Shown here in pieces: positions 3,851-47,983 of a stretch of DNA of 53,728 nucleotides. The notes beneath the pieces were generated by a model. The model was not told the origin of the DNA, searched no databases, and saw only the letters and a list, made by a program, of their open reading frames with translations. The stretch comes from Escherichia phage ES2-BCU-3, in sequence record PV733669.1; one strand, given 5' to 3'. The position numbers and the translations under genes are program-made. The number at the start of each line of letters is the position of its first letter. Position 1 is the stretch's first letter.

Positions 3851-5413
3851 ATGTCAATACCTTCAGCGACTACTCCGAATGTTGGTTACCAACGTCCTGA
3901 GTTAACGAAGAATTCTGGCAAATACAATATGATTAAAGATTGTATTGAAGGCCAGCAGGCTGTTAAACGTCGTAAAACGTTTTATCTTCCGCAGCCAGAC
4001 CCTACTAACTGTACGGCGGAAAACATTCGCCGTTATGAACAGTACCTTGAGCGTGCTGTATTCTATAACGTGCTGCAGCGTACCCTGTCAGGTATGACTG
4101 GTCTTGTTTTCCAGCAGCCACCTGAGATGCTCATGCCGGATGATATGGAAGTCCTGCGTGTAAATATCGATGGTGCTGGTATTGGTGCAATCCAACAGAT
4201 GCGCCGTTGCTTTAAATCTGTATTGGCCTTTGGTCGCGCAGGTATACTTACTGACTTCCCGCCGGCTCGTGTCGACAGCGAAGGCAAGCAACTTGGTTTT
4301 ACTCGCCAAGAGCTGATGGATGGTACAGTACAACCTACCGTTACACTGTACATGCCGTGGCAAGTCATTAACTGGCGTGAAGAGTATCGCGAAGGTAAAG
4401 TTGTACTGACTCAGGTAGTTATCTGTGAGCAGATTCCTGGCGTTACAGACGGATTCCAGCAGGACTACACTCCTGTGTGGCGCCACCTGTTCCTTGACAG
4501 CAATGGTGATTGCACACAAACAATCTGGGTTAACAAGGGTGACCCCAAAGCTGATAACGTTTCTGGCGGCGCACTGTACGTTGCACAGCAGACTGCGGTT
4601 ATGAAAGACTCGAACGGTAAGCCTCTCAAGTTTATCCCGTTCAAGTTCATTGGTTCTGAAACCAACAGTGCTGAGATTGACCCGCCGCCAATGTATGACC
4701 TGGCTGTGCTGAACATCGCGCACTATCGTAACTCAGCTGACTACGAAGAATCATGCTTTATCACAGGTCAGCCCACAGTATGGGCGTCTGGTCTGACAGA
4801 AGCATGGGTCGAAGATGTTCTCAAGGGTGAACTGCGCCTTGGTTCTTACGGCGGTATTCCGCTGCCAGCTAATGCTGCTGTGGGCATGATTCAGACGAGC
4901 CCTAACACCCAGCCGTTCGAAGCAATGAAACAGAAAGAAGCGCAGATGATTGCTATCGGTGCTCGACTGATTCGTGAGAATGGTAAAGTAGAACGTCGTG
5001 AAGTTGAAATTAAAAACGAAGCAGCATCTGAAGCCTCGTTAATCGTAACTGTTGCGCAAAACGTTGAAGCAGCATATCGTGAAGCACTTGGTTGGTGCGC
5101 TCTGTTCTACGGGCATGACCCCAAAGAACTGACTATCAACCTGAGCTATAACTTCATCTACAGCCAGATGACATATCAGGAACGTCAGCAGCTGGTAAAT
5201 GAATGGCTCGCAGGTGCAATCACCTTCACCGAAATGCGTAGCAACCTGAAACAAGCTGGCATTGCTAAACTTACTGATGATGAAGCTAAGAAAGCCATTG
5301 ACGAAGAGATGGCTGAACGTGACGCACGGGAAGTAGCAAAAGAAGCTGAAAAGAATGCTCAAGCAGCTAAGAACAACAATGTGGAAGAAAATAATCCAGA
5401 AAAAGTTGAGTAA
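3851..5413 (+). CDS. Portal protein (putative)
   Basis: 520-aa ORF directly downstream of terL, the conserved position of portal genes; acidic C-terminus. Confidence 0.55.
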   Translation: MSIPSATTPNVGYQRPELTKNSGKYNMIKDCIEGQQAVKRRKTFYLPQPDPTNCTAENIRRYEQYLERAVFYNVLQRTLSGMTGLVFQQPPEMLMPDDMEVLRVNIDGAGIGAIQQMRRCFKSVLAFGRAGILTDFPPARVDSEGKQLGFTRQELMDGTVQPTVTLYMPWQVINWREEYREGKVVLTQVVICEQIPGVTDGFQQDYTPVWRHLFLDSNGDCTQTIWVNKGDPKADNVSGGALYVAQQTAVMKDSNGKPLKFIPFKFIGSETNSAEIDPPPMYDLAVLNIAHYRNSADYEESCFITGQPTVWASGLTEAWVEDVLKGELRLGSYGGIPLPANAAVGMIQTSPNTQPFEAMKQKEAQMIAIGARLIRENGKVERREVEIKNEAASEASLIVTVAQNVEAAYREALGWCALFYGHDPKELTINLSYNFIYSQMTYQERQQLVNEWLAGAITFTEMRSNLKQAGIAKLTDDEAKKAIDEEMAERDAREVAKEAEKNAQAAKNNNVEENNPEKVE

Positions 5414-5418
5414 AGCTA

Positions 5419-5447
5419 TTTACTTTATGCTTACTGGGTTATATAAT
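5419..5447 (+). promoter_or_regulatory. Sigma70-like promoter (TTTACT-17-TATAAT)
   Basis: TTTACT 5419..5424, TATAAT 5442..5447; followed by the structured GC-rich leader 5455..5529. Confidence 0.45.
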
Positions 5448-5591
5448 CCGTTTTGTCAACCGCGCAACAGCCGGCCACGAGAGTCTGCAGGGCTCAGTGG
5501 ATTTCGGATGGCTGGCTGCGCGGTTTGACCCAAACCTGTTCGGAGCCCACTTGAGTGGATTGAGCCCCTCTCATATAGGATTGAAAATATT

Positions 5592-6308
5592 ATGGCACTT
5601 AAAACAGTTGTAACTGACCTGAACGAAATTGACGAAGGCTTCCGTGGCCTGTACGTCAAAGACGATGCTTCTGGTGCGTACCGTCTGGACGTTGAGCCTG
5701 ACGAGAAAACCACCAAAGAGCTGGAAGAGCTGCGCAAAGAAAAACAGCGTATGGAACAGCACACCAAAAAGCTTCTCGAAGAAAAGAAAAAAGAAGCTGA
5801 ACGTGCTCGTCTGGCTGAAGAAGAACGTGCTCGCCGCGACCGTGACGTTGAGTCGCTGGAACGTTCTCTGCGTGAAAAGCACCAGGCTGACATCGAAAAT
5901 GCGAACAGTCGCACAGCATTACTGCAGGCGCAACTCGAAAGCCAAATGGTTGATAACCTGGCAATGCGTCTGGCAAACGAACTCTCTGACACACCAGCAC
6001 TGATTATGCCGCACATCAAATCTCGACTGCGCGCTCAAGAGATTGATGGTAAGTGGCGTACCTCTGTTGTTGATGTCATGGGTAACCCGACTGCTACCAC
6101 GCCGGATGAGCTCGTTGAGCACATGCGCGCTGATAAGCAGTTTGCACCTCTTGTGCGTGGAACCAAGGCTGGCGGTGGCGGTGCCAACGGCGGCGGAGCT
6201 AATCCTGGTGGGAACGGCAATGGTGAACAACAGCACTCCTTTGGGGGCGGGGACGACCGCGTAGCACGTGCTCGTGCTAAAATTCAAAATACTCAATGGG
6301 GCAAATAA
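5592..6308 (+). CDS. Scaffolding protein (putative)
   Basis: Charged, coiled-coil-rich 238-aa protein between portal and capsid genes; Gly-rich C-terminal segment. Confidence 0.5.
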   Translation: MALKTVVTDLNEIDEGFRGLYVKDDASGAYRLDVEPDEKTTKELEELRKEKQRMEQHTKKLLEEKKKEAERARLAEEERARRDRDVESLERSLREKHQADIENANSRTALLQAQLESQMVDNLAMRLANELSDTPALIMPHIKSRLRAQEIDGKWRTSVVDVMGNPTATTPDELVEHMRADKQFAPLVRGTKAGGGGANGGGANPGGNGNGEQQHSFGGGDDRVARARAKIQNTQWGK

Positions 6309-7308: not shown

Positions 7309-7340
7309 AAAAGGCGTGCTGACGAGCACGCCTTTTTTAT
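7309..7340 (+). terminator. Rho-independent terminator
   Basis: Stem ggcgtgct(7313..7320), loop gacg, stem agcacgcc(7325..7332), then TTTTTTAT. Confidence 0.8.
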
Positions 7341-7368
7341 TTACAGCAATAAAGTTCTGGTGTATAAT
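7340..7368 (+). promoter_or_regulatory. Sigma70-like promoter with extended -10 (TTTACA-17-TGtTATAAT)
   Basis: TTTACA 7340..7345; TG at 7361..7362; TATAAT 7363..7368. Confidence 0.55.
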
Positions 7369-7396
7369 CGGACTAAACTTGCTGGAGGATTGGTTG

Positions 7397-7897
7397 ATGG
7401 CTTACAACATTATTGTCGAAGACGGTACAATCGTCCCAGGCGCAAATTCATATGTTAACACTCAAGAGATTGATGAGTTCATCACAAACGAAGGCATCAT
7501 TCTTGAACCAGGTGTTGACCCGTATTACCAGGCAACTAAAGCAGCAATCAAACTTGATACTCAGTACAACTGGATTGGTTTCAAGGTAAGTAAGACACAA
7601 CCTATGTCATGGCCTCGTACAGGTCTTGGTTGCTGTAATATCGATATTGCTGAAAACGTTATACCACGTGAGGTCAAGCTAGCACAGCTTTACTTGCTCG
7701 CAGATAAGCTTACAGCAGCAAGTGAAGAAGGTGTTCGTGGCGACCAGGCGTTGCGTCGTAAGAAGGTCGGTAACCTGGAGATTGAATACTTCGACTCCAA
7801 GTCTGGTGTAACTGGTGCTTCATCAGACTGGATTACAGATACTCGCGCTCTGCTTAAACACCTTGTGGGTGCAATGCTGAGAACTCGGAGGGTGTAA
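7397..7897 (+). CDS. Hypothetical virion protein (head completion region)
   Basis: ATG 7397 with GGAGGA 7384..7389; the track ORF (7316) begins inside the terminator/promoter region. Confidence 0.5.
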   Translation: MAYNIIVEDGTIVPGANSYVNTQEIDEFITNEGIILEPGVDPYYQATKAAIKLDTQYNWIGFKVSKTQPMSWPRTGLGCCNIDIAENVIPREVKLAQLYLLADKLTAASEEGVRGDQALRRKKVGNLEIEYFDSKSGVTGASSDWITDTRALLKHLVGAMLRTRRV

Positions 7898-8767: not shown

Positions 8768-9218
8768 TGGTTCCTGTATTGTTGGCGAAGAGTCTGGCAC
8801 AGTAGATGGCCAGCCATACATCTACCTTAAACCTGGTGATGCTGACGACTTTGGACCTGCTCGTACATATCAAGACGACCAGGGCATGGAGACAGTTGTA
8901 CAGCCTATGGTGATTGACGTTAAGGTCACAGCTGTAGGCAAGAACTCAGACGCTATCATGCGCAAACTTCGTGTAGCACTTGGTAGTTCACCAGCCAAAC
9001 AATTTAATAGACTGCGCCACTTTGCAATAACTAAAATGTCGCCACTGAAAAACGTAGGCGGTGCAATAGGTGCAGGCTATGCTCAAAAGACTTTATTGAC
9101 TCTTGAGATTACTTACGTGCACAAAGTTATTATTAATCAGCCGTACATTTACAAGGTTGATATTACTTGTGTTGATGATAACGGCGGGAAAGCCACTGGA
9201 ACAGTTGAGGTGCCGTAA
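8691..9218 (+). CDS. Hypothetical structural protein
   Basis: ATG 8691 preceded by GGAG; overlaps the upstream gene by 77 nt in another frame (track ORF starts at 8628). Confidence 0.4.
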   Translation: MATTTLQQFSILDLRELVRQLLQLPDGSCIVGEESGTVDGQPYIYLKPGDADDFGPARTYQDDQGMETVVQPMVIDVKVTAVGKNSDAIMRKLRVALGSSPAKQFNRLRHFAITKMSPLKNVGGAIGAGYAQKTLLTLEITYVHKVIINQPYIYKVDITCVDDNGGKATGTVEVP

Positions 9219-9838
9219 TGGCAACAGCAATCGACCCGGATTTGCAAGCACAGCTTGATAAGCTAACTGTTGCGGTTCAGCTTATCCATGACTTCGGTAT
9301 GTCTGACGACCCGAGCATACCTAACCCAGAAGGCGGTGTAATCCGTACGCTGGAAGGTATTAACGAAGCAATCAACGAAGCTATTCCAAACTTCGAAGAT
9401 GCTAACCAGGCAGCTATTGAAGCACGAGCAGCCAGGGACGCAGCTCAGTTAGCACAGCAAAAAGCAGAAGACGCGGCTGCATCTGCTTCCAACTCTTCTA
9501 CTTCAGCACTGTATGCTTTTGGTAATGTAGCAAGTGCGCCTACTGTTACTATACCTGCTTCATCTAAAACTGTTGTTGACGTTACACTCAATGCTGTAAC
9601 TACTCAGATTAATATTGGTGCTGTAACTGACCCAGCTACTATAGCCCGTCAGATTACTATTGCTGTGAAGCAGGGCACAGGTTCCAACAAAGCTACCTGG
9701 GACTCACGTATCAAATGGGCAAACAACAGAAAGCCTGTGCTTTCATTCCTTGTGGGTTACGAGGACTTTGTTACGCTTATTACCCGTGACTCCGGTAACA
9801 CATGGACTGGCTTCTTTAACGGTGGATGGGTTGGCTAA
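9218..9838 (+). CDS. Hypothetical structural protein
   Basis: ATG 9218 with GAGG upstream; 206 aa. Confidence 0.5.
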   Translation: MATAIDPDLQAQLDKLTVAVQLIHDFGMSDDPSIPNPEGGVIRTLEGINEAINEAIPNFEDANQAAIEARAARDAAQLAQQKAEDAAASASNSSTSALYAFGNVASAPTVTIPASSKTVVDVTLNAVTTQINIGAVTDPATIARQITIAVKQGTGSNKATWDSRIKWANNRKPVLSFLVGYEDFVTLITRDSGNTWTGFFNGGWVG

Positions 9839-12795
9839 TGCATACATTGATAATGAAGAATGCTGACCATCGAGCTAATGTTGAAAGCATTATCGAAGGT
9901 CACCATCACTTCTTAGAACGCAATACGGGCAGAACTGACGACGCTACAAAACAACACTATGTCTTTAACCCAGAAGGCATAGTGTCAAACAACCGTCACT
10001 TCATTGCCCATACAATGATGGAGTATCAACCTAATGGTGATGCTCCGTCTGAGAGTCAGTCTCTGCTGATTCTGGGAGAAGTCCATGCTTACCTGGCTAC
10101 TAAGGAACAGCGATACCTCGATAAAGCTATTGAGTACTTCGACGCATACGTTAAGTATTATTACGAGGGCGACCCTATTCCAGATACACCAAGGCGCTGG
10201 ATTGCTAACTGGCTTTGTAACGGCAAAGAACCAGTGCTTGCTAATTTCCCTATTAATGATTCGCAGCCAACTCAGGGCGGCTACAAGAACGTACCAATAC
10301 GTTTTGTTAATGGGAAGGCTATGGTGCCTCAGGGCTCTCCTTTTTGGGGCGAGTATATGGATGTGGCGACATGGGCTCACCGCGGACACATGGCGTGGCC
10401 TGCTATTAACGGTGGCGTACGTGCTATACAAGATACCGTAGACTGGGATGATATTTACGATAACTATCGTATAACCACTATGCCTGCTAATCCTGCAGAC
10501 CAGTTAGCATGGATTGATTGGCCGCGCTATCTTGGTAAACCGTCGTACACAGTCGACTGGTCTTCTCCTGAACCTCCGTTGCAGCTGATAGAATATATTG
10601 TTGCATGGACTGGCGACAGAATCGGTGTACTGCCAGGTAAGAACGACGAGCTATGGGGTGGTGAGATTCTGGAATCTGGTTTACCTGACTCACGTAAAGG
10701 TGAGATTCAGCTTCGTGACCATACTGTCAATGGGGTTTACCTGCTCAACTACTCTGTTAAGCTGCCAGTCGATAAAGGTGGTTACTTACTGAAGCGTAAT
10801 GAGGTATGGCACAACCGTCCTATTAACGTTCCGCTTCATGGCGAACTGCAACGTGGTAACGCTGCTGACGCCGAGCTCTGGTTCTGTGACTGTTGCTATA
10901 TGCTGTGGCGCATTACTAACGAGCAAAAGTATTATAACGCATGGCAAGCTGTACTATTTACTTTGGAGGAATATCTTGACATCGACAGACAAGACCAGTT
11001 CTTCCGACAAGACCCGTCTGCGTCTTCGCCATTCACTGATGGCATTTCTTACGACTGGTCTTATCCAGAAGAAGCACAAGCTCTGTACTCTCGCGATGCT
11101 AATGGGTATATTGATTTACGTCAAAATGAGATTGCTCAGTCATCACTTGAGCAGCAAGCTGTCTGGTTTAAAGTAAAACCAAGTGCGAAGATTCGTACTG
11201 AAACAGGCGGTCTTGACGATGCTGGTGGTAACATTAGCGTTAAGGTTGAGATGTACATGAACCGTGAGAAAGTCGATGTCGATGCAAACATCTATCGTTT
11301 TGTGGCTCAGCTTCCACCTCTGGCAGCTACACCCACAAACTATGACATTCCGCTCAGTGACTTCGTTGCTGGACAGAAAGGTGATGGTTCTGAGTATATC
11401 CTTGCTGATATACGAGCTGCTGTTGATTATGGGAATACAGTAGTCCGTCAGGTATATCGCACTGACATTCTCGATAATCGTCGCGGTAACACTATTCAGT
11501 TCACTATCCCAGACGGTTCGTCTGGTGGTATTATCGGTTTCTGGTTGCTGGAGTCTTCACGTTCTCCTTTAACTGGTTTAACCTATACATCCACAGGTCC
11601 GCTGTTGCTTAAAGCGACTGACGACCAGGGTTGGAACTGGGAACGTCCATTACCTGCCGCAGGTGGCTGGACAAGTATAACTATCAAGAACAGCGACTTT
11701 ACTTTGGCGTCATACCAGGAGAATCCTGGTACACCTGGTAAAGACCATCCTACGTGGACGGACATACCGCAGTTCTCTTTTGTACTGCCTGACGGAGTAG
11801 AGACTAGCACAATGCTAAGCTACTACTGTGTCAACGATGTTCCTCCTCGTTATGACTGGGACATTGGCTACACAATCAAGTATCGCTTAACGTTCTCTGC
11901 TGAGCATCCATACTTGGTTAAACTTGGTGACTGTACAGTTATTGATTATGAGCCTGACAACCTGGCGTACGTGCCTGGGTTAGTTCCGTTCTCAAACATC
12001 TATAACACGGAATCACAGCAGTTCGATGGCTGGCATGGTATGCCTTACCCTGGCTACCAATACCCATTCATCTTTACGCATGATGATACAGCTGTTGGTG
12101 CTAAGCGAATGGAGAACATGACTAACTTCTTGTACGACTCTCAGCAGTGGTACTTTAAGCGGTTTGGTCAGTTAGGTCCTGGCGCCTCAGCTTACATCTG
12201 GAACCGTTGGGATAACTTCAAGTATGGCGTTGCTGATACTTTCACTATGTATCACTGGGGGAACGGTAGTGCTTGGTCTGGTTATCAGCCTCGTGCTTAC
12301 TTCAGTGCTGCACGTGCTGTTTACGAGATGAAGAATCGCGGTAAGACACCACCTGCGAAACTTGTCAAGTACGTAGAGAACTGGACAACTTGGTTACTCG
12401 ACTTTATGGAACGGTCTGGCGGTGTGTCACCTACTAACTTCCCTCAGGAAGGTGTAGCAATGCCTGACCCTACTGACTTCACTGGTCACATGTGTGGCTT
12501 GTGGCTGGCAGGCGCATCTATGGATGCCCTTTGTGGGTCGAGTGTTAAAGGCGTTGAACGACTGATGGACCTGCTTGTTAATGAGCTGGAAGACCATTAT
12601 GATATTACCGGAGTACCTGGTCATATTATGGATGGCGGATGGTCGCCAGCTTTACGACTGAGTACTGGTTCAGGTCCTGAAAGCAATGCGATGTATTTCG
12701 GATTCTATTCAGGTGAGATTCTTCGCGGGTTAAGTTTGTACCTGCTGTACAAAAATAAAGGCGTCGGGGCAGATATTTACGACCTGGGCAAATAA
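9826..12795 (+). CDS. Large virion-associated protein of unknown function (989 aa)
   Basis: Longest ORF in the window, between head-completion and Ig-like genes; Trp/Tyr/Asp-rich; an alternative in-frame ATG at 9838 makes a TAATG junction. Confidence 0.6.
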   Translation: MGWLMHTLIMKNADHRANVESIIEGHHHFLERNTGRTDDATKQHYVFNPEGIVSNNRHFIAHTMMEYQPNGDAPSESQSLLILGEVHAYLATKEQRYLDKAIEYFDAYVKYYYEGDPIPDTPRRWIANWLCNGKEPVLANFPINDSQPTQGGYKNVPIRFVNGKAMVPQGSPFWGEYMDVATWAHRGHMAWPAINGGVRAIQDTVDWDDIYDNYRITTMPANPADQLAWIDWPRYLGKPSYTVDWSSPEPPLQLIEYIVAWTGDRIGVLPGKNDELWGGEILESGLPDSRKGEIQLRDHTVNGVYLLNYSVKLPVDKGGYLLKRNEVWHNRPINVPLHGELQRGNAADAELWFCDCCYMLWRITNEQKYYNAWQAVLFTLEEYLDIDRQDQFFRQDPSASSPFTDGISYDWSYPEEAQALYSRDANGYIDLRQNEIAQSSLEQQAVWFKVKPSAKIRTETGGLDDAGGNISVKVEMYMNREKVDVDANIYRFVAQLPPLAATPTNYDIPLSDFVAGQKGDGSEYILADIRAAVDYGNTVVRQVYRTDILDNRRGNTIQFTIPDGSSGGIIGFWLLESSRSPLTGLTYTSTGPLLLKATDDQGWNWERPLPAAGGWTSITIKNSDFTLASYQENPGTPGKDHPTWTDIPQFSFVLPDGVETSTMLSYYCVNDVPPRYDWDIGYTIKYRLTFSAEHPYLVKLGDCTVIDYEPDNLAYVPGLVPFSNIYNTESQQFDGWHGMPYPGYQYPFIFTHDDTAVGAKRMENMTNFLYDSQQWYFKRFGQLGPGASAYIWNRWDNFKYGVADTFTMYHWGNGSAWSGYQPRAYFSAARAVYEMKNRGKTPPAKLVKYVENWTTWLLDFMERSGGVSPTNFPQEGVAMPDPTDFTGHMCGLWLAGASMDALCGSSVKGVERLMDLLVNELEDHYDITGVPGHIMDGGWSPALRLSTGSGPESNAMYFGFYSGEILRGLSLYLLYKNKGVGADIYDLGK

Positions 12796-12801
12796 CGACT
12801 A

Positions 12802-12830
12802 TTTACATGGTTGAAGCGCCAGCTTATAAT
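12802..12830 (+). promoter_or_regulatory. Sigma70-like promoter (TTTACA-17-TATAAT) with -10 inside a palindrome
   Basis: TTTACA 12802..12807, TATAAT 12825..12830; 8-bp perfect inverted repeat gcgccagc(12816..12823)/gctggcgc(12833..12840) brackets the -10. Confidence 0.55.
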
Positions 12831-12864: not shown

Positions 12865-13506
12865 ATGGCAAATCGCACAACCGCTAACCGTCCTATCGAA
12901 GACGCAGACCTGCGTCAGGAAGAGGTTACGCAGTTCCCGCCAGCTAAACCGACTAAGCTCGATGAGAATGGCAAGTTCATTCCTACGCCGGTTACTGGCA
13001 TCACTGTAACACCTGATACCGCCAGCTTGCTGGTAGGTGAGTTCAAAACTCTTACCGGTACCATTGCGCCTGCTGACGCAGACGATGTTACTGTGCTGTG
13101 GTCGTCTGACGACGAAACCATCGCGACTGTTGACGGCTCAGGTCGTGTGCAGGGTATTAAAGTTGGCTCTGCAACTATCACGGCTAAGTCCAAACTGGAC
13201 CCAACCAAAACTGATACTGCAGCTATCACCGTTACAACTCCGCCTGTTGCAGTTACCGGCGTTACTGTTGCTCCTAAGACCGCCACGCTTTCCCTGGCAG
13301 GTACTAAGACTCAGCAGCTGACTCCTACCATTGCACCGGCTAACGCTACCAACAAAGCCGTGACCTATACCTCCAGCGACGCGACAGTAGCATCTGTCAA
13401 CTCTTCTGGTCTGGTAACTGGTCTGAAAGAAGGTACAGCGACCATCACTGTTAAAACCACTGATGGCAACAAAACTGATACCTGCGCTGTAACCGTTACC
13501 GCGTAA
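12865..13506 (+). CDS. Ig-like (BIG2-type) domain protein
   Basis: Repeated ~80-aa units with TVTP...A...TxTA...P..A....V.W.SSD..(I/V)ATVD pattern; ATG 12865 with AGAGGA 8 nt upstream. Confidence 0.6.
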   Translation: MANRTTANRPIEDADLRQEEVTQFPPAKPTKLDENGKFIPTPVTGITVTPDTASLLVGEFKTLTGTIAPADADDVTVLWSSDDETIATVDGSGRVQGIKVGSATITAKSKLDPTKTDTAAITVTTPPVAVTGVTVAPKTATLSLAGTKTQQLTPTIAPANATNKAVTYTSSDATVASVNSSGLVTGLKEGTATITVKTTDGNKTDTCAVTVTA

Positions 13507-13518
13507 CAGGAGCATACG

Positions 13519-15393
13519 ATGTCGCTTCCACTTAATGAGGTTGTCGACGTCCAGTTCAGCAAAAGCAACGGGGGTAAAGGTTTTACCCCCGAAGTAAAGC
13601 TGAAGGGTATATGGGCGAGCAGATACCTTTACGAAATGCTGTCGAATGATAGCCGCGTATTAATCGGTATCATGTACGACCCTGCTGATGCAACTAACAA
13701 GGGCATGACCTGGAAGTCAAGTAAGCCTCTTGTCGTAACTGTAGATGCCGAAGGCTATGTTACACCAGTGTCTGCTGGTGAAGCATTTGTAACTGGCACA
13801 TCAGACGATGGTGGTTTTACTGTTGTGATTCGGTTTATTATAACCAAAGCACCTGTGCCTGTTACTGATGTTACTGTTACACCCACAAGTCTCTTGCTTG
13901 AGGTAGGTGCTACCGGTCAACTCAGTTTCACTTACTTGCCAGCTGACGCAGACGACCTCAACTTCTCATGGCAGACTGATAACCCTGCGATAGCTACTGT
14001 TGATACAAACGGTAAAGTTACAGCTGTTGCGCCTGGGTCTACTGTCGTAACCCTTTTCTATTCTGCAAGCGTATATGATACGTGTGCAGTAACTGTGATT
14101 CCGCCTACTGTGCATGTTACCAGCGTACAGTTTGATACTCAGGAACCACTAAACGTAAACATCGGTAACACTGAAGAAACCGAGATAACTGTTTTACCGG
14201 CTAACGCTACTGACAAATCTGTTACGTACAAAAGCAGTGACACGGCTATTGCCACTGTCGATGCTGATGGCAAGGTAACAGGTGTAGCAGCAGGTAACGC
14301 AACAATAACTGTGACTACTACTGACGGTGCGAAGACTGACACCTTGGCTGTTGTTGTTAAGGTTCCTGTTGTTCCTGTCACTGGTGTTACTATTGACGAA
14401 GGTTCTACAGCTAGCATGACTGTTGGAGACACTCTTCAACTTCACGCAACTGTTGCACCTGCTAACGCAACAAACAAAAACGTGTCATGGCAATCGTCAG
14501 CACCTTCTGTGGCTACTGTAGGTTCTGCTGGTTTGGTAACAGCAGTTGCAGGCGGAAGTGCTAACGTAACTGTTACGACAGAAGATGGTAGTTTTACTGC
14601 TACTATCGGAATAAGTGTTGGTGTTCCTGTAGTTCATCCTACAGGTGTAACCATCGACCAGGGTGATGCTGCAGATGTTGTTAAAGGTACAACCTTACAG
14701 CTAACAGCCACAGTCGCCCCGGCTGATGCAACCAATAAAGCTGTCACTTGGTCTTCTGCCACACCTGCCAATGCGACAGTAGATTCAAATGGACTTGTGA
14801 CTGGTATTGCTTTTGGTACCTCTGTCATTACTGTCACTACTGTTGACGGTGGAAAGACAGATACCATTACAATTACTGTACCGTCACCCGCTAGCTTAAC
14901 GACGGACTCGTTCCCGAGTAACCTACTTGTGGGTAACAAGGTACAACTGACGTATACGACAAACCCGCCAAACTCGCCGTTGACTGATATTGCTTACTCA
15001 TCGTCAGATGAGACTATTGCGACTGTCGACTCTACGGGTCTGGTAACCATGTTAGCAGAAGGAAGTGCCACTATTAACATGAGTGCTAAGTCGTATGGTG
15101 AGGCAGTTAGTGACGGGTCTGGTATGTACCCTGTAACATTAAGTGTGCACACCGATTCGTTACCTTCGTTGGCAGTAGGTGCAACACAAAGTCTTGTTGT
15201 TTCAACTACTCCATCCTGGGCCTTAACTGACCCAGCAAGTACGGTCGAGTATACTACGACAGACGCCACTGTGGCAACTGTCGATACTACAGGCCTGATA
15301 ACTGGCGTCGCCTCCGGTGGTTGTAGGATAGGTGCGACAGTAAAAAATGGACTGGTAGAAGCATCTGATAGTTCCTATCAATCAGTTGACTAA
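13519..15393 (+). CDS. Ig-like domain repeat protein (about five tandem BIG2-like domains)
   Basis: Same domain pattern repeated; AGGAG upstream of ATG 13519. Confidence 0.6.
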   Translation: MSLPLNEVVDVQFSKSNGGKGFTPEVKLKGIWASRYLYEMLSNDSRVLIGIMYDPADATNKGMTWKSSKPLVVTVDAEGYVTPVSAGEAFVTGTSDDGGFTVVIRFIITKAPVPVTDVTVTPTSLLLEVGATGQLSFTYLPADADDLNFSWQTDNPAIATVDTNGKVTAVAPGSTVVTLFYSASVYDTCAVTVIPPTVHVTSVQFDTQEPLNVNIGNTEETEITVLPANATDKSVTYKSSDTAIATVDADGKVTGVAAGNATITVTTTDGAKTDTLAVVVKVPVVPVTGVTIDEGSTASMTVGDTLQLHATVAPANATNKNVSWQSSAPSVATVGSAGLVTAVAGGSANVTVTTEDGSFTATIGISVGVPVVHPTGVTIDQGDAADVVKGTTLQLTATVAPADATNKAVTWSSATPANATVDSNGLVTGIAFGTSVITVTTVDGGKTDTITITVPSPASLTTDSFPSNLLVGNKVQLTYTTNPPNSPLTDIAYSSSDETIATVDSTGLVTMLAEGSATINMSAKSYGEAVSDGSGMYPVTLSVHTDSLPSLAVGATQSLVVSTTPSWALTDPASTVEYTTTDATVATVDTTGLITGVASGGCRIGATVKNGLVEASDSSYQSVD

Positions 15394-15419: not shown

Positions 15420-15448
15420 TTTACACAGACTTTATTCCTGTGTATAAT
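15420..15448 (+). promoter_or_regulatory. Sigma70-like promoter with extended -10 (TTTACA-17-TGtTATAAT)
   Basis: TTTACA 15420..15425; TGTGTATAAT 15439..15448. Confidence 0.55.
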
Positions 15449-17672: not shown

Positions 17673-19334
17673 ATGGCGACAATAATCGATAGCTTCCTGG
17701 TATCGCTAGAGAGTAAGGCCGATAGTTCTGGCTTTGACCTCTTCGACCAGCTGTCTCGCCGTTTTGTGATTACCCTCGGTGACGTAATCAATCTGGCTGA
17801 GCGTGCCGCAAGTGCGCTCGGCAAGATGTTTGCGCCCGCGTTAGAAGCGGATGTAATTGGTGCCAAGATTCGAGGCTTCGGTTACGACGTAGAATCGACG
17901 TGGAAAACGCTGATGGATATGTCTCTGCAAATGGGTACACCATTCCAGGAGGCACTCGACGGCTTTACCAAATTAAAAGCATATGGCGTTGACCCGTTAA
18001 ACGGTTCACTTCAGATGCTCAAAACTATCACTGCCGCAACAGGCGGTGACTTGGCACGTACCATTATTGCGTATGGCCAGGCTACTGCGATGGGTTCATT
18101 GCAGGGCCAAGAAAAGAACCAGTTCATTAACGCCGGTGTCGACATCTGGGGTGCCCTGTCTCGCTACCTCGATAAACCACTTGGTGAACTGCAAGACATG
18201 ATGCGCAAGAAGCAAATCACGTCTGACATTCTTACCAGCGCTCTGAAAAAAGAAGCTGAGCGTTTAAAACCAATTGCAGAACAAGTTGCTAACACGCTGA
18301 AAGCTCAGCTTACCAACTTGAGTACAATCTGGTATGCTGCACGAGCTAAGTTCTCGCAGACCAGAATCTGGAGTGAAGCAACCAAAGGTGCTATCTCTCT
18401 GGTTAAGACGTTGACATCTGTTCTTAACGATGCAACGCTTACTGCAGCGTTTAAAAAGTTTGATGACCTTGTATTCGGCTTAATTGAAGACGTTAAGCGT
18501 CTGGTATACGTAGTCGGTGATAACTTCCCACTGATGGTCGCCATAACTACCTTTGCATTGATGCAGCTTATTCCTGTGCTTGCTCGTGTAGGTAATGCGT
18601 TTATGGCGCTTGCAGCCAAAATACTGATGAACCCGTTAACCTGGCTGATTCTCGGTATTGCTGCAATCATCTCACTGCTTGCTGACCTTGATGATGCGTT
18701 AGCAGGCCGTGAGACAATGGTCAACTGGTCCAAGGAAGCTGTTCAGGCTTGGAGCCTTGTTAAGCAGTATGTACTTATCATCGCTGATGCCATACTGGCA
18801 ATCTTCGATGGCAGGGCATGGGACAAGCTGACAGGTTGGTGGGACAACCTGATGGTCAAGATTAAGAAAGGCATCGAAGACATTAAGCTTTGGATTACTG
18901 AAGCTATTGCTCAGTTGCCTGGTGGTCAATACCTGCTGAACATGTTTAGCAAGATGCCGAACATGAATAACCCTCAGGCTATTGCTGACGGTTATGGTAC
19001 AGGACCTTTGCCGCCGCAACAACCTAAGCCGCAAGGTGGTGGATTCAGTTTCAGCGACTTGCTTAACTGGTCTGCCCGTAATTTCAACCCTATTACGGGT
19101 GAGCTTACTCCTGGTGGTCAGGCGATGCGTGCAGCAATGAATAGTGCAAACCAGTCTGCTAACAACAGCGGCGCACCTACGGTTATCCACCAAGATAACA
19201 GCGTCAAGGTCGATGCAACTATTACAGGTGTTGAGAACCCACAACAGGTAGGCAAGGAAGTTGCAGACCAGACTAAGCTGGCGCATCAGAATGCTTCGTC
19301 TAAATCTAACTCGCAGACGGCGGTGAAACAATGA
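17673..19334 (+). CDS. Tape measure protein (putative)
   Basis: 553-aa protein with helical N-terminus, central hydrophobic segments and Gly/Gln-rich C-terminus; sits between chaperone and baseplate genes. Confidence 0.55.
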   Translation: MATIIDSFLVSLESKADSSGFDLFDQLSRRFVITLGDVINLAERAASALGKMFAPALEADVIGAKIRGFGYDVESTWKTLMDMSLQMGTPFQEALDGFTKLKAYGVDPLNGSLQMLKTITAATGGDLARTIIAYGQATAMGSLQGQEKNQFINAGVDIWGALSRYLDKPLGELQDMMRKKQITSDILTSALKKEAERLKPIAEQVANTLKAQLTNLSTIWYAARAKFSQTRIWSEATKGAISLVKTLTSVLNDATLTAAFKKFDDLVFGLIEDVKRLVYVVGDNFPLMVAITTFALMQLIPVLARVGNAFMALAAKILMNPLTWLILGIAAIISLLADLDDALAGRETMVNWSKEAVQAWSLVKQYVLIIADAILAIFDGRAWDKLTGWWDNLMVKIKKGIEDIKLWITEAIAQLPGGQYLLNMFSKMPNMNNPQAIADGYGTGPLPPQQPKPQGGGFSFSDLLNWSARNFNPITGELTPGGQAMRAAMNSANQSANNSGAPTVIHQDNSVKVDATITGVENPQQVGKEVADQTKLAHQNASSKSNSQTAVKQ

Positions 19335-23692: not shown

Positions 23693-24338
23693 TTACAAGC
23701 AACTGTTAATCCAACAGTATGCTGACAAACCAAAAGCCCTGGCAACAATCCAGGGTTTTGACGATGCGATTCAACCTATCTGGGACGGTGCACAACAGGT
23801 TGTTGATAGTCTTAATATCGACAAAGCTTTTGGCAAAGGCCTGGATAATGTTGCTGCTCGTGTAGGTGCGTCACGCGTACTGAAAAAAGGTGTTGACCGT
23901 AAGTTCTTCGGCTTCACCAATAAGATTCCTGATGTACTGGGCTTTGGTGGTTCTTCTGGCAAAAAGGGTGGACCATTCTATCGTTACGGTGCATCACTGT
24001 TTGACCCAGTTGTTCTTGATGATGTTGACTTGCGTACATACATCAAGATGAAAATCTGGAAGAACTTCCAGGAAGGTACAATGCCTTACTTGATTGACTT
24101 CCTGATTGAATTCTTTGGTGAGAACAACTTTGTTGTTACTGACAACGAAGATATGTCTCTCACGTTAGAAATTTATGGTACACTCACGCCATTGAAACAG
24201 GTGCTCATCCAGAACTATGACATCTTGCCGAGACCGATGGGTGTTAAGATTAACCTGAACACAAGCGTAGATGCGACAGATGCATTGTATCGTTACGCTA
24301 CTGTAAACTTACCAGCACAGGTGAACGTATATGGCTGA
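23685..24338 (+). CDS. Baseplate / tail fibre-associated protein
   Basis: Overlaps the J-like gene end; precedes the fibre gene. Confidence 0.4.
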   Translation: MANYKQLLIQQYADKPKALATIQGFDDAIQPIWDGAQQVVDSLNIDKAFGKGLDNVAARVGASRVLKKGVDRKFFGFTNKIPDVLGFGGSSGKKGGPFYRYGASLFDPVVLDDVDLRTYIKMKIWKNFQEGTMPYLIDFLIEFFGENNFVVTDNEDMSLTLEIYGTLTPLKQVLIQNYDILPRPMGVKINLNTSVDATDALYRYATVNLPAQVNVYG

Positions 24339-25680
24339 TGTACAGACTAGACCGGATAATGACATCTTCGCGAGTGCTGCAGGCACTGGTGAACTGTTAC
24401 CATTCGGCGACCTTGCCCGTGGTTGGGGTGCGACCCTGGGTTACTCAGACGGTATTCCGCCTATGGAGTGGTTCAACTTCATTGGTAACCGTACTGACAA
24501 AGGCATCCACTATATTCTGCAGCAAGGCGTTGACGTCTGGGTTGCCACTGAGACTTATCCTGTTGGTGCTCTTGTTAAAGTGCAAGCAAGCAACATGCTC
24601 TATCGTTGCCTTGTACAGAACATTAACATGGCGCCAGCTAACAACCCAACTCAGTGGCGTCCTGTTCTAGACCTTACTGCTGCAACTGCTGCAGCAAGAC
24701 AGGTCGGCAAGAACTCAGGCAACCTGATTCAGGTTGGTGCGTTTGGTCTAGGTGGTAATGCTGAAGTTGTTACTAACGCATCGTCAATTACCAACGATGG
24801 CTTGTATCAGCTTACACCCACAGGGGTAGGTGGTCCAGAGTCAGGCGTTGCATGTGAGCTGGTTCATATCCAGATTGATGCTAATAACGCTACTCAATGG
24901 GCTAAGCCTGCTAACAAACGAATCCTGTACCTGCGCGATAAGATTAACGGTACCTGGAACTCATGGGAAGGTCAGTACGGTCCTAGCAACAAGCCGTCCG
25001 CTGCAGACCTGAACATTGACCAGGACTTCATCCCTATGGATGGTTCTGATTCAATCCGTGGTAATCTCGGTACAGTAGGTTGGGTTCATATTGCACGCAA
25101 TACTTCTGACCTGTTCCGTGCTGCTAACTCTTCTGGTGTTGCAGTTCACGAGGTATCTGGTAACGTAGCAGGCGGTACGGCAGTTACTGAGTACATGACC
25201 TCCGTATCTGTTTCGGCCAACAGTAACTTGATTACTGCGGCACGCTGGGGTTCAGTACCTATGACGCACATCCAGCACATCCTGGTGTCTGGTGGTGCAA
25301 CCCAGATTAACCTGGCTGTGTCTCGTGCTGGTGGTATTGCTGACAGACGTATTGCCGCATTGTCTGTAGATGGTGCAAATAACCGAGTCACCACACTAAA
25401 TAGCTTTACTTTATGTGAAAATGGAACTAGAGTATATTCACCAAATAACCCTCAGCCTGTTGACTTATCGAGTGTCGTGAATAGCGTCCGTTGGGGTTCT
25501 GAAGTAACTAACCCAAGAACTGGCGGCGAATCCTTTGTGCTACGCGTCCCGTCGGGTCACGCAGCAACTGGCTTCGATATTCATTCTAAGAGTGGTCGTG
25601 AAGATGAATTCCGTAATGTCTTCTCTCGTCCGCTTCAGATTCTCGTTAACGGTAGCTGGTTCACTGTAGGACAAATTTAA
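24331..25680 (+). CDS. Tail fibre protein (putative)
   Basis: 449-aa Gly/Ala/Asn-rich protein at the distal end of the tail block. Confidence 0.5.
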   Translation: MADVQTRPDNDIFASAAGTGELLPFGDLARGWGATLGYSDGIPPMEWFNFIGNRTDKGIHYILQQGVDVWVATETYPVGALVKVQASNMLYRCLVQNINMAPANNPTQWRPVLDLTAATAAARQVGKNSGNLIQVGAFGLGGNAEVVTNASSITNDGLYQLTPTGVGGPESGVACELVHIQIDANNATQWAKPANKRILYLRDKINGTWNSWEGQYGPSNKPSAADLNIDQDFIPMDGSDSIRGNLGTVGWVHIARNTSDLFRAANSSGVAVHEVSGNVAGGTAVTEYMTSVSVSANSNLITAARWGSVPMTHIQHILVSGGATQINLAVSRAGGIADRRIAALSVDGANNRVTTLNSFTLCENGTRVYSPNNPQPVDLSSVVNSVRWGSEVTNPRTGGESFVLRVPSGHAATGFDIHSKSGREDEFRNVFSRPLQILVNGSWFTVGQI

Positions 25681-45147: not shown

Positions 45148-45480
45148 ATGATTAAGCCAAAGCTGTTACGGCACATTCGTAACGGTGTTAAACTGCTTGC
45201 CGAAGGAAATGAGTATACTTGCAAGCAACGAGGTATCACAAAAGTCGGTCTATTTAATAAAGAACTGCCAATGCGATATTTCACCAAGTCACCATTGACC
45301 CTGGTTCCTGCAGCAGAGTATTACAAAGACCCCGAAGCAGCACGTGCAAAGATTAAGGATGCACTTGATTTGCTTGTCGAGGAAGGCTACTTGACTATTC
45401 GTCAACACACTGAATCATCTTTCTATTATAAGCCAACCCTCAAGGTAACCAGCAATGACAATGACGAGTCAGCCGAGTGA
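45148..45480 (+). CDS. Hypothetical protein
   Basis: 110-aa ORF with AGAGGAG RBS. Confidence 0.5.
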   Translation: MIKPKLLRHIRNGVKLLAEGNEYTCKQRGITKVGLFNKELPMRYFTKSPLTLVPAAEYYKDPEAARAKIKDALDLLVEEGYLTIRQHTESSFYYKPTLKVTSNDNDESAE

Positions 45481-47983
45481 TATTTTAGGGCTGAAGTTCT
45501 TCAAACCAGAAGGCATCCCTCAAGTCTTCAAAGATATGAAGCGCTGGGGTATCTTCGAATTAACGTACGAAGACGATAAGCTCGAAGTACAATCAAAACC
45601 TAAGAAACCGGCAAGGGCCCCGTCCGGGCGTTCCTTTAGCACCACTGTACCTGAAGAGTGGATGACATTCGACGAAGCATTGAATCGATGCATTCGCAAC
45701 CGTGAGATGAAGATTAAAGCTGTACAGGGTAATATAACCTTTGTACCAGCATTGATTGTTCCTCGCCAATGGTACTTTGTTGACCTGGACAACCATGAAG
45801 ACAACCCAGATATTGAGGCAACCCACAAAGCCATAATTGAAGGGACTCGCGGTGCTTATGCTGAGACATCTATCTCGGGTAAAGGTCAGCACATCGCTAT
45901 ACCATTACCATGGACTGCAGCAACGTCCAAAGAGAAAGACGACCTGCTGGACATCAAAATCCAGAAGGCTGAGATGTTCCTGGTAATGACAGGTAACGTG
46001 TTGAGTGAGTTCAATGCCAACCCTGTATCAGCCAAGCAATGGCATGAAGCTATTGAGCGATTCTTCCGTGATGCTTCAGCTCCTGATATTGATGTACAGT
46101 TTGAGCAAGACCCTGACCTGGGTGAAGAGCATGACAAAGAGCTGTATGCTCAGTTAGCCGAGAATACTCGTTGGGCATTAGAACACCCAATGAATGAGCA
46201 TGCACCTGATGGTGTTGGTGTAAGTAATGATGGTTCCGAACGTCTTAGCCGTATATTGAAAGACTTACTTCGTGTTACCCGTAATTACGAAGTCACACAG
46301 CGCATCTTTATGTCAAGTGCTGCAGCTCAGTACTCAGGACGACGTGCAAGCCGTATCAATTTGAGTGAGACACAATATCTGCAATGGTTCAGCCGTGTAG
46401 GTAAGACTGTACTCAAAGAGATGCAACGTGACGGACTGTTTGTCAAGACTGCATTTGCTCTGGACATTAACAAAGAGCTGATGAAGAAGTCTGGCATTAA
46501 ACTTGCCGACAATGTAGAGTTCAAGGTTGATGAAGACATTCTACCGTCTGAAGAGTTTGTACGTACAGCCCCAACAGGTTTCAAAGCTCTTATCGCCGAA
46601 GTGCAAAGCAATATTGCACCAAGCAAACGAGTGAATGACTACGCCATCGGCACCGCACTCAATATCCTGAGTAACTGTGCAGGACGCAAGTATGTTTGCC
46701 CTGTTGAAGGTCATGCAAACTTCCTGGTGACTAACATCATCCTTGTGGGTGGTTCATCTATCGGTAAGTCACTTTATACCGAGATGTTCCCGCAGATTCA
46801 GGCCGGCCTTCCAGAAGGTTCACCGCTGAGTCTGTTACGCATACCCCGTGAGCAGACGTTTGCAACCAGGACATTCGCCGAGATGATGGCTAACCCGTCA
46901 TTCCACTCGGTACAACTGTTCTACCCTGAATTTGGCCTGGCATTAGGTTCTGGTTTACGCATGAACCCTAACAACCCAGACAACTTCCAGAAGGCTTTAA
47001 TGGATGCTTCAACCAAGCGTAAGGTTGGCGGTATCTTAACAGGCATTAAACGTGCCAATGCTGAGAATGATGTTAAGGCGGTTCACGAACCTTGTTACTC
47101 TATCTTTGGTGACTCGACTCAAGAGCTTATCCTTGACAACACTCGTAAGCAAGACTTCTCATCTGGCTTCTTACCTCGCTTCCTGTTCATTCCGAACTAC
47201 GAACGAGCAGACTTTGCACAACCTGAGAAGGTAGGACGCCGTAAAGAAGTTCGCCGAGTACAGTTCAGCAAGGATATGATTGAACAGCTCGAGGCAATTG
47301 CTTATGTCAATGCTATTCCACCAAACGGACGGCTGAGACACGAACCAATCGCCATTTACGATGAGTCCGACGATGATGACATCTTGTATGAGTACCAATG
47401 CAAGATTAATGACATGCGTCGCTACTATCGTGATAACGAAGTTGCATCAGCCTTTGTGGGTCGTATGGGAGAATATGTCTTCAATATCGCCTCACTAATT
47501 GGCTTGCTTGATAATTGGGACAATCCTGTAATGACTCGTGATAACATTGAATGGGCATACAAATATGTTCTTCGTTGTATCACAGCCTGGGTTAACAATG
47601 CCAGCAAGGTAATTGCTCCACCTACAACTGACGCTGAAGTGGTTGACGGCTTCCTCAAAGTGTATCGGGACCTTTTGGCCCAGTACAACAAGAAAGGCTG
47701 GAAAGGTATTGTCAAGCATTATCCTGATAACATTGTACGCAATCTCAAGGAAGACCACCTCAAGATGAATGGCTTATCAATATATGCTATTCGTCAAAGT
47801 ATGGGCTGGTTTAAGACTTCTTACAACTTTGAGATTAAGAACAAGGCAATTGACGGCATGCTCAAGGATATGATAGACCAGGACTACCTTGCTGTCCAAG
47901 TATATAAGCCACCCACAGGTAAGTCGTCCAATTTGTACTGCTTAACTGAACGCGGTTACTCAGAAGCCAAGAAACTTAAATAA
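45455..47983 (+). CDS. Primase-helicase (AEP-type primase/polymerase domain fused to SF3-type helicase)
   Basis: N-terminal VDLDNH and SGKGQHIAIP resemble the archaeo-eukaryotic primase catalytic core; C-terminal P-loop VGGSSIGKS with downstream acidic motifs typical of D5/SF3 helicases. Confidence 0.6.
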   Translation: MTMTSQPSDILGLKFFKPEGIPQVFKDMKRWGIFELTYEDDKLEVQSKPKKPARAPSGRSFSTTVPEEWMTFDEALNRCIRNREMKIKAVQGNITFVPALIVPRQWYFVDLDNHEDNPDIEATHKAIIEGTRGAYAETSISGKGQHIAIPLPWTAATSKEKDDLLDIKIQKAEMFLVMTGNVLSEFNANPVSAKQWHEAIERFFRDASAPDIDVQFEQDPDLGEEHDKELYAQLAENTRWALEHPMNEHAPDGVGVSNDGSERLSRILKDLLRVTRNYEVTQRIFMSSAAAQYSGRRASRINLSETQYLQWFSRVGKTVLKEMQRDGLFVKTAFALDINKELMKKSGIKLADNVEFKVDEDILPSEEFVRTAPTGFKALIAEVQSNIAPSKRVNDYAIGTALNILSNCAGRKYVCPVEGHANFLVTNIILVGGSSIGKSLYTEMFPQIQAGLPEGSPLSLLRIPREQTFATRTFAEMMANPSFHSVQLFYPEFGLALGSGLRMNPNNPDNFQKALMDASTKRKVGGILTGIKRANAENDVKAVHEPCYSIFGDSTQELILDNTRKQDFSSGFLPRFLFIPNYERADFAQPEKVGRRKEVRRVQFSKDMIEQLEAIAYVNAIPPNGRLRHEPIAIYDESDDDDILYEYQCKINDMRRYYRDNEVASAFVGRMGEYVFNIASLIGLLDNWDNPVMTRDNIEWAYKYVLRCITAWVNNASKVIAPPTTDAEVVDGFLKVYRDLLAQYNKKGWKGIVKHYPDNIVRNLKEDHLKMNGLSIYAIRQSMGWFKTSYNFEIKNKAIDGMLKDMIDQDYLAVQVYKPPTGKSSNLYCLTERGYSEAKKLK

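Follow-up and report, generated by a model that had tools for sequence, protein, structure and literature searches.

The largest open reading frame (ORF) in a 53,728-nucleotide stretch of DNA from Escherichia phage ES2-BCU-3 (PV733669.1; the whole stretch is referred to below as the window) encodes a protein, here called the large protein, that belongs to the known and already annotated phi92 gp141 / PHROG 2871 family and that is predicted to fold like a carbohydrate-active enzyme to which binding-module-like domains are joined. With moderate confidence, we favor the interpretation that it is an accessory tail protein of the virion with a glycoside hydrolase (GH)-type barrel, which would be docked by the small protein encoded directly upstream and would bind, and probably cleave, a conserved surface glycan. 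The two genes concerned are the following:

9218..9838, plus strand: partner gene, 206-amino-acid (aa) small fiber/adaptor-like protein (ORF16 of Salmonella phage S144); its stop and the likely start of the large gene overlap
9826..12795, plus strand: large tail protein gene of the PHROG 2871 / phi92 gp141 family; 989 aa from ATG 9826, 985 aa from the likelier ATG 9838

ORF 9826..12795 is a real gene. The first-pass annotation of the window had given its coordinates, its length, and its rank as the largest gene correctly (the runner-up, at 45455..47983, encodes 842 aa) and had rightly set it between head-completion genes and Ig-like and tail genes: on its 5' side lie genes for a head-tail adaptor, Neck1, a head protein, a terminator-like protein, and the 206-aa "tail fiber protein," and on its 3' side those for two Big_2 immunoglobulin (Ig)-like proteins and then the sheath. 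The TAA stop codon of the upstream gene (9836-9838) overlaps ATG 9838 as TAATG, with GGTGGA approximately 11 nucleotides (nt) 5', and since the database cluster representative of the large protein is 985 aa long, ATG 9838 is more likely to be the true start; the depositors of S144 placed the start at Met10, which gives 980 aa. Relative to the other structural proteins of the window, the large protein was enriched in Trp (2.5-fold), Tyr (2.2-fold), and His (2.2-fold). The richness in Trp and Tyr described previously was thus confirmed, whereas that in Asp (1.14-fold) and Asn (0.95-fold) was not.

In megablast comparisons, the window was 97 to 99% identical in nucleotide sequence to Salmonella phages ZCSE2, S144, and PK3 (genus Loughboroughvirus, 53-kb myoviruses), and the large protein was 99.9% identical to S144 ORF17. 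ORF17 ("putative tail protein 2") was detected in purified S144 virions using tandem mass spectrometry with electrospray ionization (25 peptides, 33% coverage), as were its neighbors ORF16 and ORF18 (PMC7432712). The virion proteomics proposed in the first-pass annotation had therefore already been published for a 99.9% identical protein, and through this identity the large protein counts as a structural component of the virion. The authors of the S144 study noted an HHpred hint of hydrolase activity in ORF17 and no resemblance to fibers or spikes (PMC7432712). An earlier description of the protein as being of unknown function held insofar as Pfam and NCBIfam scans of the full protein returned zero families, but PHROG 2871 ("tail protein") matched residues 6 to 985 (E = 0, 1360 bits) and relatives carry annotations: phi92 gp141, 42% identical over its full length (984 columns), is called a "glycosidase" in a review that cites Schwarzer 2012, and the rV5-like homologue is labeled "lateral tail fiber protein with glycosidase domains" in the BASEL collection.

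Full-length homologues were found by tblastn in 534 phage records. Identities were approximately 80% in Rosemountvirus, approximately 45% in Kolesnikvirus and SPN3US-like jumbo phages, approximately 40 to 43% in Asteriusvirus and in phAPEC8-like and phi92-like phages, 41% in a T7-like Aeromonas podovirus, 31% in Vibrio phages, and 28% in rV5-like phages. An exhaustive profile search over 1.84 billion representatives gave 376 protein clusters (clustered at 50% identity) at E ≤ 1e-3; with the cutoff set to E ≤ 1e-30, the number was 169. Among phages infecting Salmonella, E. coli, Erwinia, Vibrio, Aeromonas, Pseudomonas, and Acinetobacter, identity stayed high, at 41 to 50%, a level that speaks for a conserved target and not for a depolymerase specific to a serotype; in general terms, the BASEL authors reasoned likewise about the conserved portions of the Vequintavirinae fiber locus. 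Campylobacter was not counted as a host, since the matching "Campylobacter phages" were 98% identical in this locus to rV5-like coliphages; the host labels of MG065635, MG065653, MG065646, and others (approximately 137 kb, C. jejuni) are probably wrong and inflate the host range of the family. Members also occur in temperate P2/HP1-like prophages (fused to gpI on a P2-like prophage contig and as a separate gene in an HP1-like prophage of Pseudomonas fluorescens), and hence the family is not confined to virulent phages.

An AlphaFold2 model of the large protein, built from an 81-sequence alignment (predicted local distance difference test, 90.4; predicted template modeling score, 0.87), contained the twelve helices of an (alpha/alpha)6 or "six-hairpin" barrel, with two beta-rich inserts interrupting it. 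The core would thus be a barrel of glycoside hydrolase type, broken by a first insert (insert A) and by a pair of beta-sandwiches resembling carbohydrate-binding modules (CBMs). The parts are as follows (helices from DSSP of the model):

9859..10200, plus strand: barrel helices 1 to 3 (16-32, 75-92, 95-112), residues 12-125
10051-10053: codon of E76, in the motif NGD-x3-E76-S-Q78-S where helix 2 begins (family consensus, "TTEGQS")
10201..10845, plus strand: insert A, residues 126-340, a mixed beta-rich domain in the loop between helices 3 and 4, with 9.3% invariant columns
10846..11025, plus strand: barrel helices 4 and 5 (347-364, 367-384), residues 341-400
10867-10869: codon of D348, in the motif N-A-A-D348-A-E350-x-W352 where helix 4 begins
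11026..11955, plus strand: two CBM-like beta-sandwiches, residues 401-710, between helices 5 and 6
11956..12063, plus strand: residues 711-746, PGxxPFSNIY...WHGMPYPGYQYP, which return the chain to the barrel
12064..12792, plus strand: barrel helices 6 to 12 (756-780, 795-800, 820-837, 844-863, 887-902, 910-923, 959-978), residues 747-989, with conserved W792, R794, W795, D796, W817, Y820, Q821, R823, H888, and E964
12211-12213: codon of D796

A structure-based search had also been proposed at first pass, and Foldseek with the AlphaFold2 model matched CBM11/CBM22-type sandwiches to the beta-sandwich insert (probability 1.0) of this (alpha/alpha)6-barrel protein. The figures listed with the model were 28.2 for YteR/GH105, 27.2 for GH48, 26.7 for GH76, 25.9 for GH88, 25.9 for cellobiose 2-epimerase, and 25.7 for CelA (GH8); with GH105, GH48, GH76, and GH88 scoring at nearly the same level, the fold alone does not select GH8. 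The tail protein VP4 of the archaeal fusellovirus SSV19 (7xdi_F) scored much lower than the bacterial glycosidases and had no sequence relationship to the large protein. Searches against Protein Data Bank chains gave nothing useful with the single sequence (best match, E = 0.6) and only a GH76 helix-hairpin motif with the profile (E = 0.039), and a literature search on "six-hairpin" phage tail proteins returned nothing relevant. The model contained neither a right-handed parallel beta-helix nor any sign of trimeric spike architecture, so that the predicted fold is not that of a beta-helix spike, a fiber, or a tape measure. No tape measure profile matched the large protein, in line with the previous reading, and the tape measure of the window is a separate gene (17673..19334, equivalent to S144 ORF23). 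The P22 tailspike protein (TSP), phi92 EndoN gp143, and the colanidase gp150 likewise place carbohydrate-enzyme folds at the tail periphery of the virion; unlike beta-helix tailspike depolymerases, the large protein lacks a beta-helix and is far more conserved across hosts than the serotype-specific ones. Residues 523-682 (nt ~11392-11871) are also present in a distinct family of 502-aa "tail proteins" (phrog_23426, E = 4.5e-21), whose gene lies two genes upstream in Kolesnikvirus SeKF_13 (4119-5627); the beta-sandwich domain seems mobile among tail proteins.

We assessed conservation in approximately 240 family members, including distant ones. E76 (97%), Q78 (95%), D348 (99%), W352 (97%), Y744 (97%), D796 (93%), W817 (98%), R823 (98%), H888 (89%), and E964 (94%) were strongly kept, with D348 present in 219/222 and W352 in 216/222 members. 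Invariant columns made up 9 to 13% of the barrel and insert A versus 2.9% of the beta-sandwiches, the most variable region (31 to 42% identity to distant members), and residues 711-746 were the best-conserved stretch (64 to 81% identity even to distant members). In the (alpha/alpha)6 fold, the parallel helix starts make up the catalytic end. E76, D348, Y820/Q821/R823, and H888 lie within the first four residues of helices 2, 4, 8, and 10, respectively, E76 and D348 being the second residues of their helices in the model. This pattern of conservation argues for a functional pocket, in which E76 (the likely general acid, in a GH8-like position), D348, R823, H888, and possibly D796 would be the candidate catalytic residues, and we regard catalysis by the barrel as likely. 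The consensus TTEGQS (ESQS in the window) and NAADAExW resemble the GH8 motifs TSEGQS (Glu55) and SASDGD of E. coli BcsZ, and the helix starts at which the look-alikes TTEGQS and AADAE occur are equivalent in topology.

A small "tail fiber protein" gene was located directly 5' of the large gene in the window and in the six other lineages examined:

Kolesnikvirus SeKF_13: small gene directly 5'
phAPEC8-like ESCO13 and phi92 (gp140/gp141): cassette within the baseplate module
rV5-like CarlMeissner, MaxBurger, and WalterGehring: cassette
Lambda-like siphovirus: cassette directly after the gpJ-type tip protein
T7-like podovirus Atoyac15: cassette in the fiber slot between a gp16-like protein and holin
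HP1/P2-like Pseudomonas prophage: cassette between gpI and the tail fiber

In the 206-aa partner in the window, helices at the N terminus (7-28, 45-55, 59-93) precede a conserved C-terminal beta-sandwich (~100-206) with the motif QGtGsNKvtW...KW...P.LS...D...G.tW.G. All that the small proteins of the different lineages have in common is this C-terminal domain of approximately 100 aa; their N termini are lineage specific and in two lineages are recognized virion anchors (Phage_T7_tail, E = 1.5e-11; Tail_spike_N, E = 2e-10). In a P2-like prophage, the large module is fused right behind the N domain of the baseplate wedge protein gpI, and Big_2 arrays or a GP4 gp77 collar-type domain form the C terminus of other relatives. 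Taken together, the gene pairing, the shared C-terminal domain, the anchors, and the fusions point to a modular cargo for host interaction on the outside of the virion, to which an adaptor would dock it. Comparable docking is known from the adaptors of branched tailspikes (CBA120 TSP4-N, G7C gp66, K1-5/SP6 gp37-type, and the T7 gp17 N domain), from which the putative arrangement here differs in that the cargo is a globular barrel instead of a trimeric beta-helix spike and in that the structural similarity of the partner is weak. With phi92 gp141 and its rV5-like counterparts, the large protein and S144 ORF17 form one family, preceded by a small fiber gene (gp140 in phi92); the differences are that the cassette of the window lies between connector and sheath genes and not inside a baseplate/fiber locus and that the window phage lacks a battery of extra tailspikes, and otherwise there is no essential difference. 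Two further features of the partner were observed. Its helix 59-93 is long, rich in Ala, Glu, and Gln, and has weak alanine-zipper matches, suggesting a coiled-coil oligomer, and close homologues with its N terminus occur almost only on contigs of approximately 47 to 54 kb.

In the mechanism that we propose, the small protein would mount the large protein on the tail exterior, its C-terminal beta-sandwich holding the large protein and its lineage-specific N terminus plugging into the virion. The barrel would then bind, and probably cleave, a surface glycan conserved among Gram-negative hosts, which would help the phage to reach or hold the cell surface, in an accessory and conditionally dispensable role beside the Mu-type tail fiber. 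That fiber (24331..25680) is encoded with its chaperones separately from the large gene, and its S144 equivalent was considered the main receptor-binding protein by the authors of that study (PMC7432712). In a transposon study of the rV5-like phage Bas54, bas54_0026, which we checked to be a homologue of the large protein, tolerated disruption on E. coli K-12, and some fiber genes were conditionally essential on other strains (preprint 10.1101/2025.11.20.689424); the dispensability of bas54_0026 fits an accessory, host-conditional role. Three further publications were set aside: the "glycosidase R87*" mutant of Bas51 in a retron paper concerns a different gene (bas51_0026 has no Arg87), the cryo-electron microscopy (cryo-EM) paper on Bas63 (Felixounavirus) describes no such protein (the Ounavirinae matches inspected put the cassette in Kolesnikvirus SeKF_13), and the "gp38 RBP" (receptor-binding protein) of a Rosemountvirus paper is an unrelated 123-aa protein.

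Several findings weigh against this interpretation. Pfam assigned no GH family at E ≤ 10, including when eight spliced, barrel-only sequences were used. The hhalign probability was 0.15% against E. coli BcsZ and 1.3% against a 57-sequence BcsZ profile, which was shallow, the homologue search having given only close relatives (60 to 99% identity); the top local match to this profile was TEGQS (6 columns, P = 0.041, not significant). With Pfam on the full protein, Pfam on the spliced barrels, and hhalign against BcsZ and against the BcsZ alignment all negative or nonsignificant as tests of GH8 membership, the protein was filed under the six-hairpin fold and not under GH8. In our own pattern alignment, made without superposition, Gln821 (SGYQ821) matched the position of the BcsZ base Asp243 (SSYD), so that the canonical GH8a acid/base pair is not evident. 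The GH8 endoglucanases/chitosanases BcsZ, C. thermocellum CelA, and CPF_2247 (3ren; clan GH-M) share no significant sequence or profile similarity with the large protein, which differs from them in a barrel broken by inserts of approximately 215 and 345 residues and in what seems to be a Gln at the position of the BcsZ base. The spatial clustering of the conserved residues was deduced from helix topology alone, no cellular enzymes were detectable among the 376 clusters of what is a compact family, and no activity has been reported for any family member, the term "glycosidase" for phi92 gp141 having bioinformatic grounds only. The contact between the small and large proteins was deduced from synteny only, and a 2026 cryo-EM study of phi92 gives gp141 no place in the virion. 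Finally, the large gene is apparently cotranscribed with connector genes, as judged from a promoter consensus scan, and one relative has a C-terminal collar-type domain (PF23148). Of the virion-associated depolymerase suggested at first pass, the virion association and the carbohydrate-enzyme fold were supported; that it is a depolymerase is unproven.

The last two of these findings bear on position, which in the window phage would be either the baseplate periphery or the neck. A neck or collar appendage at the head-tail junction, acting as a first-contact adhesin or enzyme in the manner of whiskers or head fibers, is somewhat unlikely, although it deserves more weight than the remaining alternatives: in all other lineages examined, the gene occupies a baseplate, tail-tip, or fiber slot or is fused to a wedge protein, and the published description of S144 micrographs (transmission electron microscopy) mentions only short, rigid baseplate fibers.

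If the barrel is without activity, the large protein could be a glycan-binding receptor-binding protein, with the barrel serving as a lectin-like or architectural scaffold that binds a conserved sugar or none. We regard this as unlikely. The set of one Glu and two Asp residues with Arg, His, Tyr, and Trp, 89 to 99% conserved in diverged members and placed at the helix starts of the catalytic end, is more typical of an active site, and the barrel is better conserved than the CBM-like domains.

More doubtful still is a mainly structural role, as the scaffold or branching hub in a composite side fiber (the "arm" of phi92 fiber I, for example), in which the large protein would carry fibers, spikes, or Ig-like proteins and in which the enzyme fold would be incidental. 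The gene heads a multifiber locus directly 5' of large, variable fiber or spike genes in phi92, rV5-like, and phAPEC8-like phages; the fiber I arm and fiber II were left unassigned in the 2026 phi92 study; and in some relatives the protein is joined to a Big_2 array with homology to the downstream gene products of the window. However, the window phage, Atoyac15, and the P2-like prophage have no spike battery to carry, the conserved polar pocket would be left unexplained, and the Bas54 homologue is dispensable for infective virions on K-12.

The substrates of GH8-type barrels are beta-1,4 glycans, and peptidoglycan contains this linkage too. An ejected internal protein (the other possibility raised at first pass) or a tail-lumen cell wall hydrolase that digests peptidoglycan during DNA delivery would agree with this and with a large, virion-present, enzyme-like protein, but it is highly improbable, given that all slots and fusions are external (the T7-like fiber slot, after siphovirus gpJ, between gpI and gpH in the HP1-like prophage, and fused to gpI), that separate tape measure and spike genes lie elsewhere in the window, and that the protein does not resemble lysozymes or lytic transglycosylases.

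Returning to the barrel as a docked, probably catalytic accessory protein, a more far-reaching version of this reading can be put forward tentatively: the large protein may represent an unclassified glycoside hydrolase family, outside the Pfam GH models and with no detectable sequence relationship to any of them, which together with its docking partner forms a "plug-in" enzyme cassette, transferred among myo-, sipho-, and podoviruses with many Gram-negative hosts, and attacks one broadly conserved envelope or matrix glycan in a manner that is not serotype specific. If active, the barrel would be a widespread, conserved phage enzyme against a common Gram-negative surface or matrix sugar, would help in understanding how broad-host-range phages such as S144, phi92, and the rV5-like phages pass glycan barriers, and might serve as an antibiofilm or diagnostic reagent. 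The arrangement of adaptor and cargo would offer a ready-made handle for tail engineering, and placing the family would help to assign the unplaced densities in the phi92 fiber network. What the analysis adds is a confident fold assignment, candidate catalytic residues, and the finding that in myo-, sipho-, and podoviruses alike a small adaptor gene accompanies the gene; at present, the outcome is a refined annotation and no new kind of system.

The apparent cotranscription mentioned above was based on the following sites (promoter-like sites from a consensus scan only):

7309-7336: terminator hairpin with a 12-bp stem, downstream of the major capsid gene and just before the 7340 site
7340..7368, plus strand: promoter-like site TTTACA-N17-TATAAT (11/12)
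12802..12830, plus strand: identical promoter-like site, directly after the stop codon of the large gene
15420-15448, plus strand: identical promoter-like site, before the sheath gene
12811/12866..13506 and 13519..15393, plus strand: genes of two Big_2 Ig-like virion proteins

The sites at 7340, 12802, and 15420 suggest that the large gene closes a unit to which the connector genes also belong, as would fit a neck position. Transcription of this unit probably begins at the 7340 site, and the 12802 site would give the Ig-like genes a unit of their own; the three sites may split the structural region into units and may be middle or late promoters. The 53.7-kb window yielded no tRNA genes, in agreement with the description of S144. 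The listed GTG start (7316) of the adaptor gene (7316-7897) lies upstream of the 7340-7368 site, and the 166-aa version of S144, with a start near 7397, is more plausible. With regard to the Ig-like genes, some siphovirus relatives of the large protein (1687 to 1694 aa) carry a Big_2 array at the C terminus that is 39 to 42% identical to the downstream Ig-like proteins of the window, a fusion that hints at a functional link between the large protein and the Ig-like proteins. The likelier start of the first Ig-like gene is ATG 12866 (AAGAGG ribosome-binding site), and the S144 equivalent of its product, ORF18, had 80% peptide coverage and is thus an abundant virion protein.

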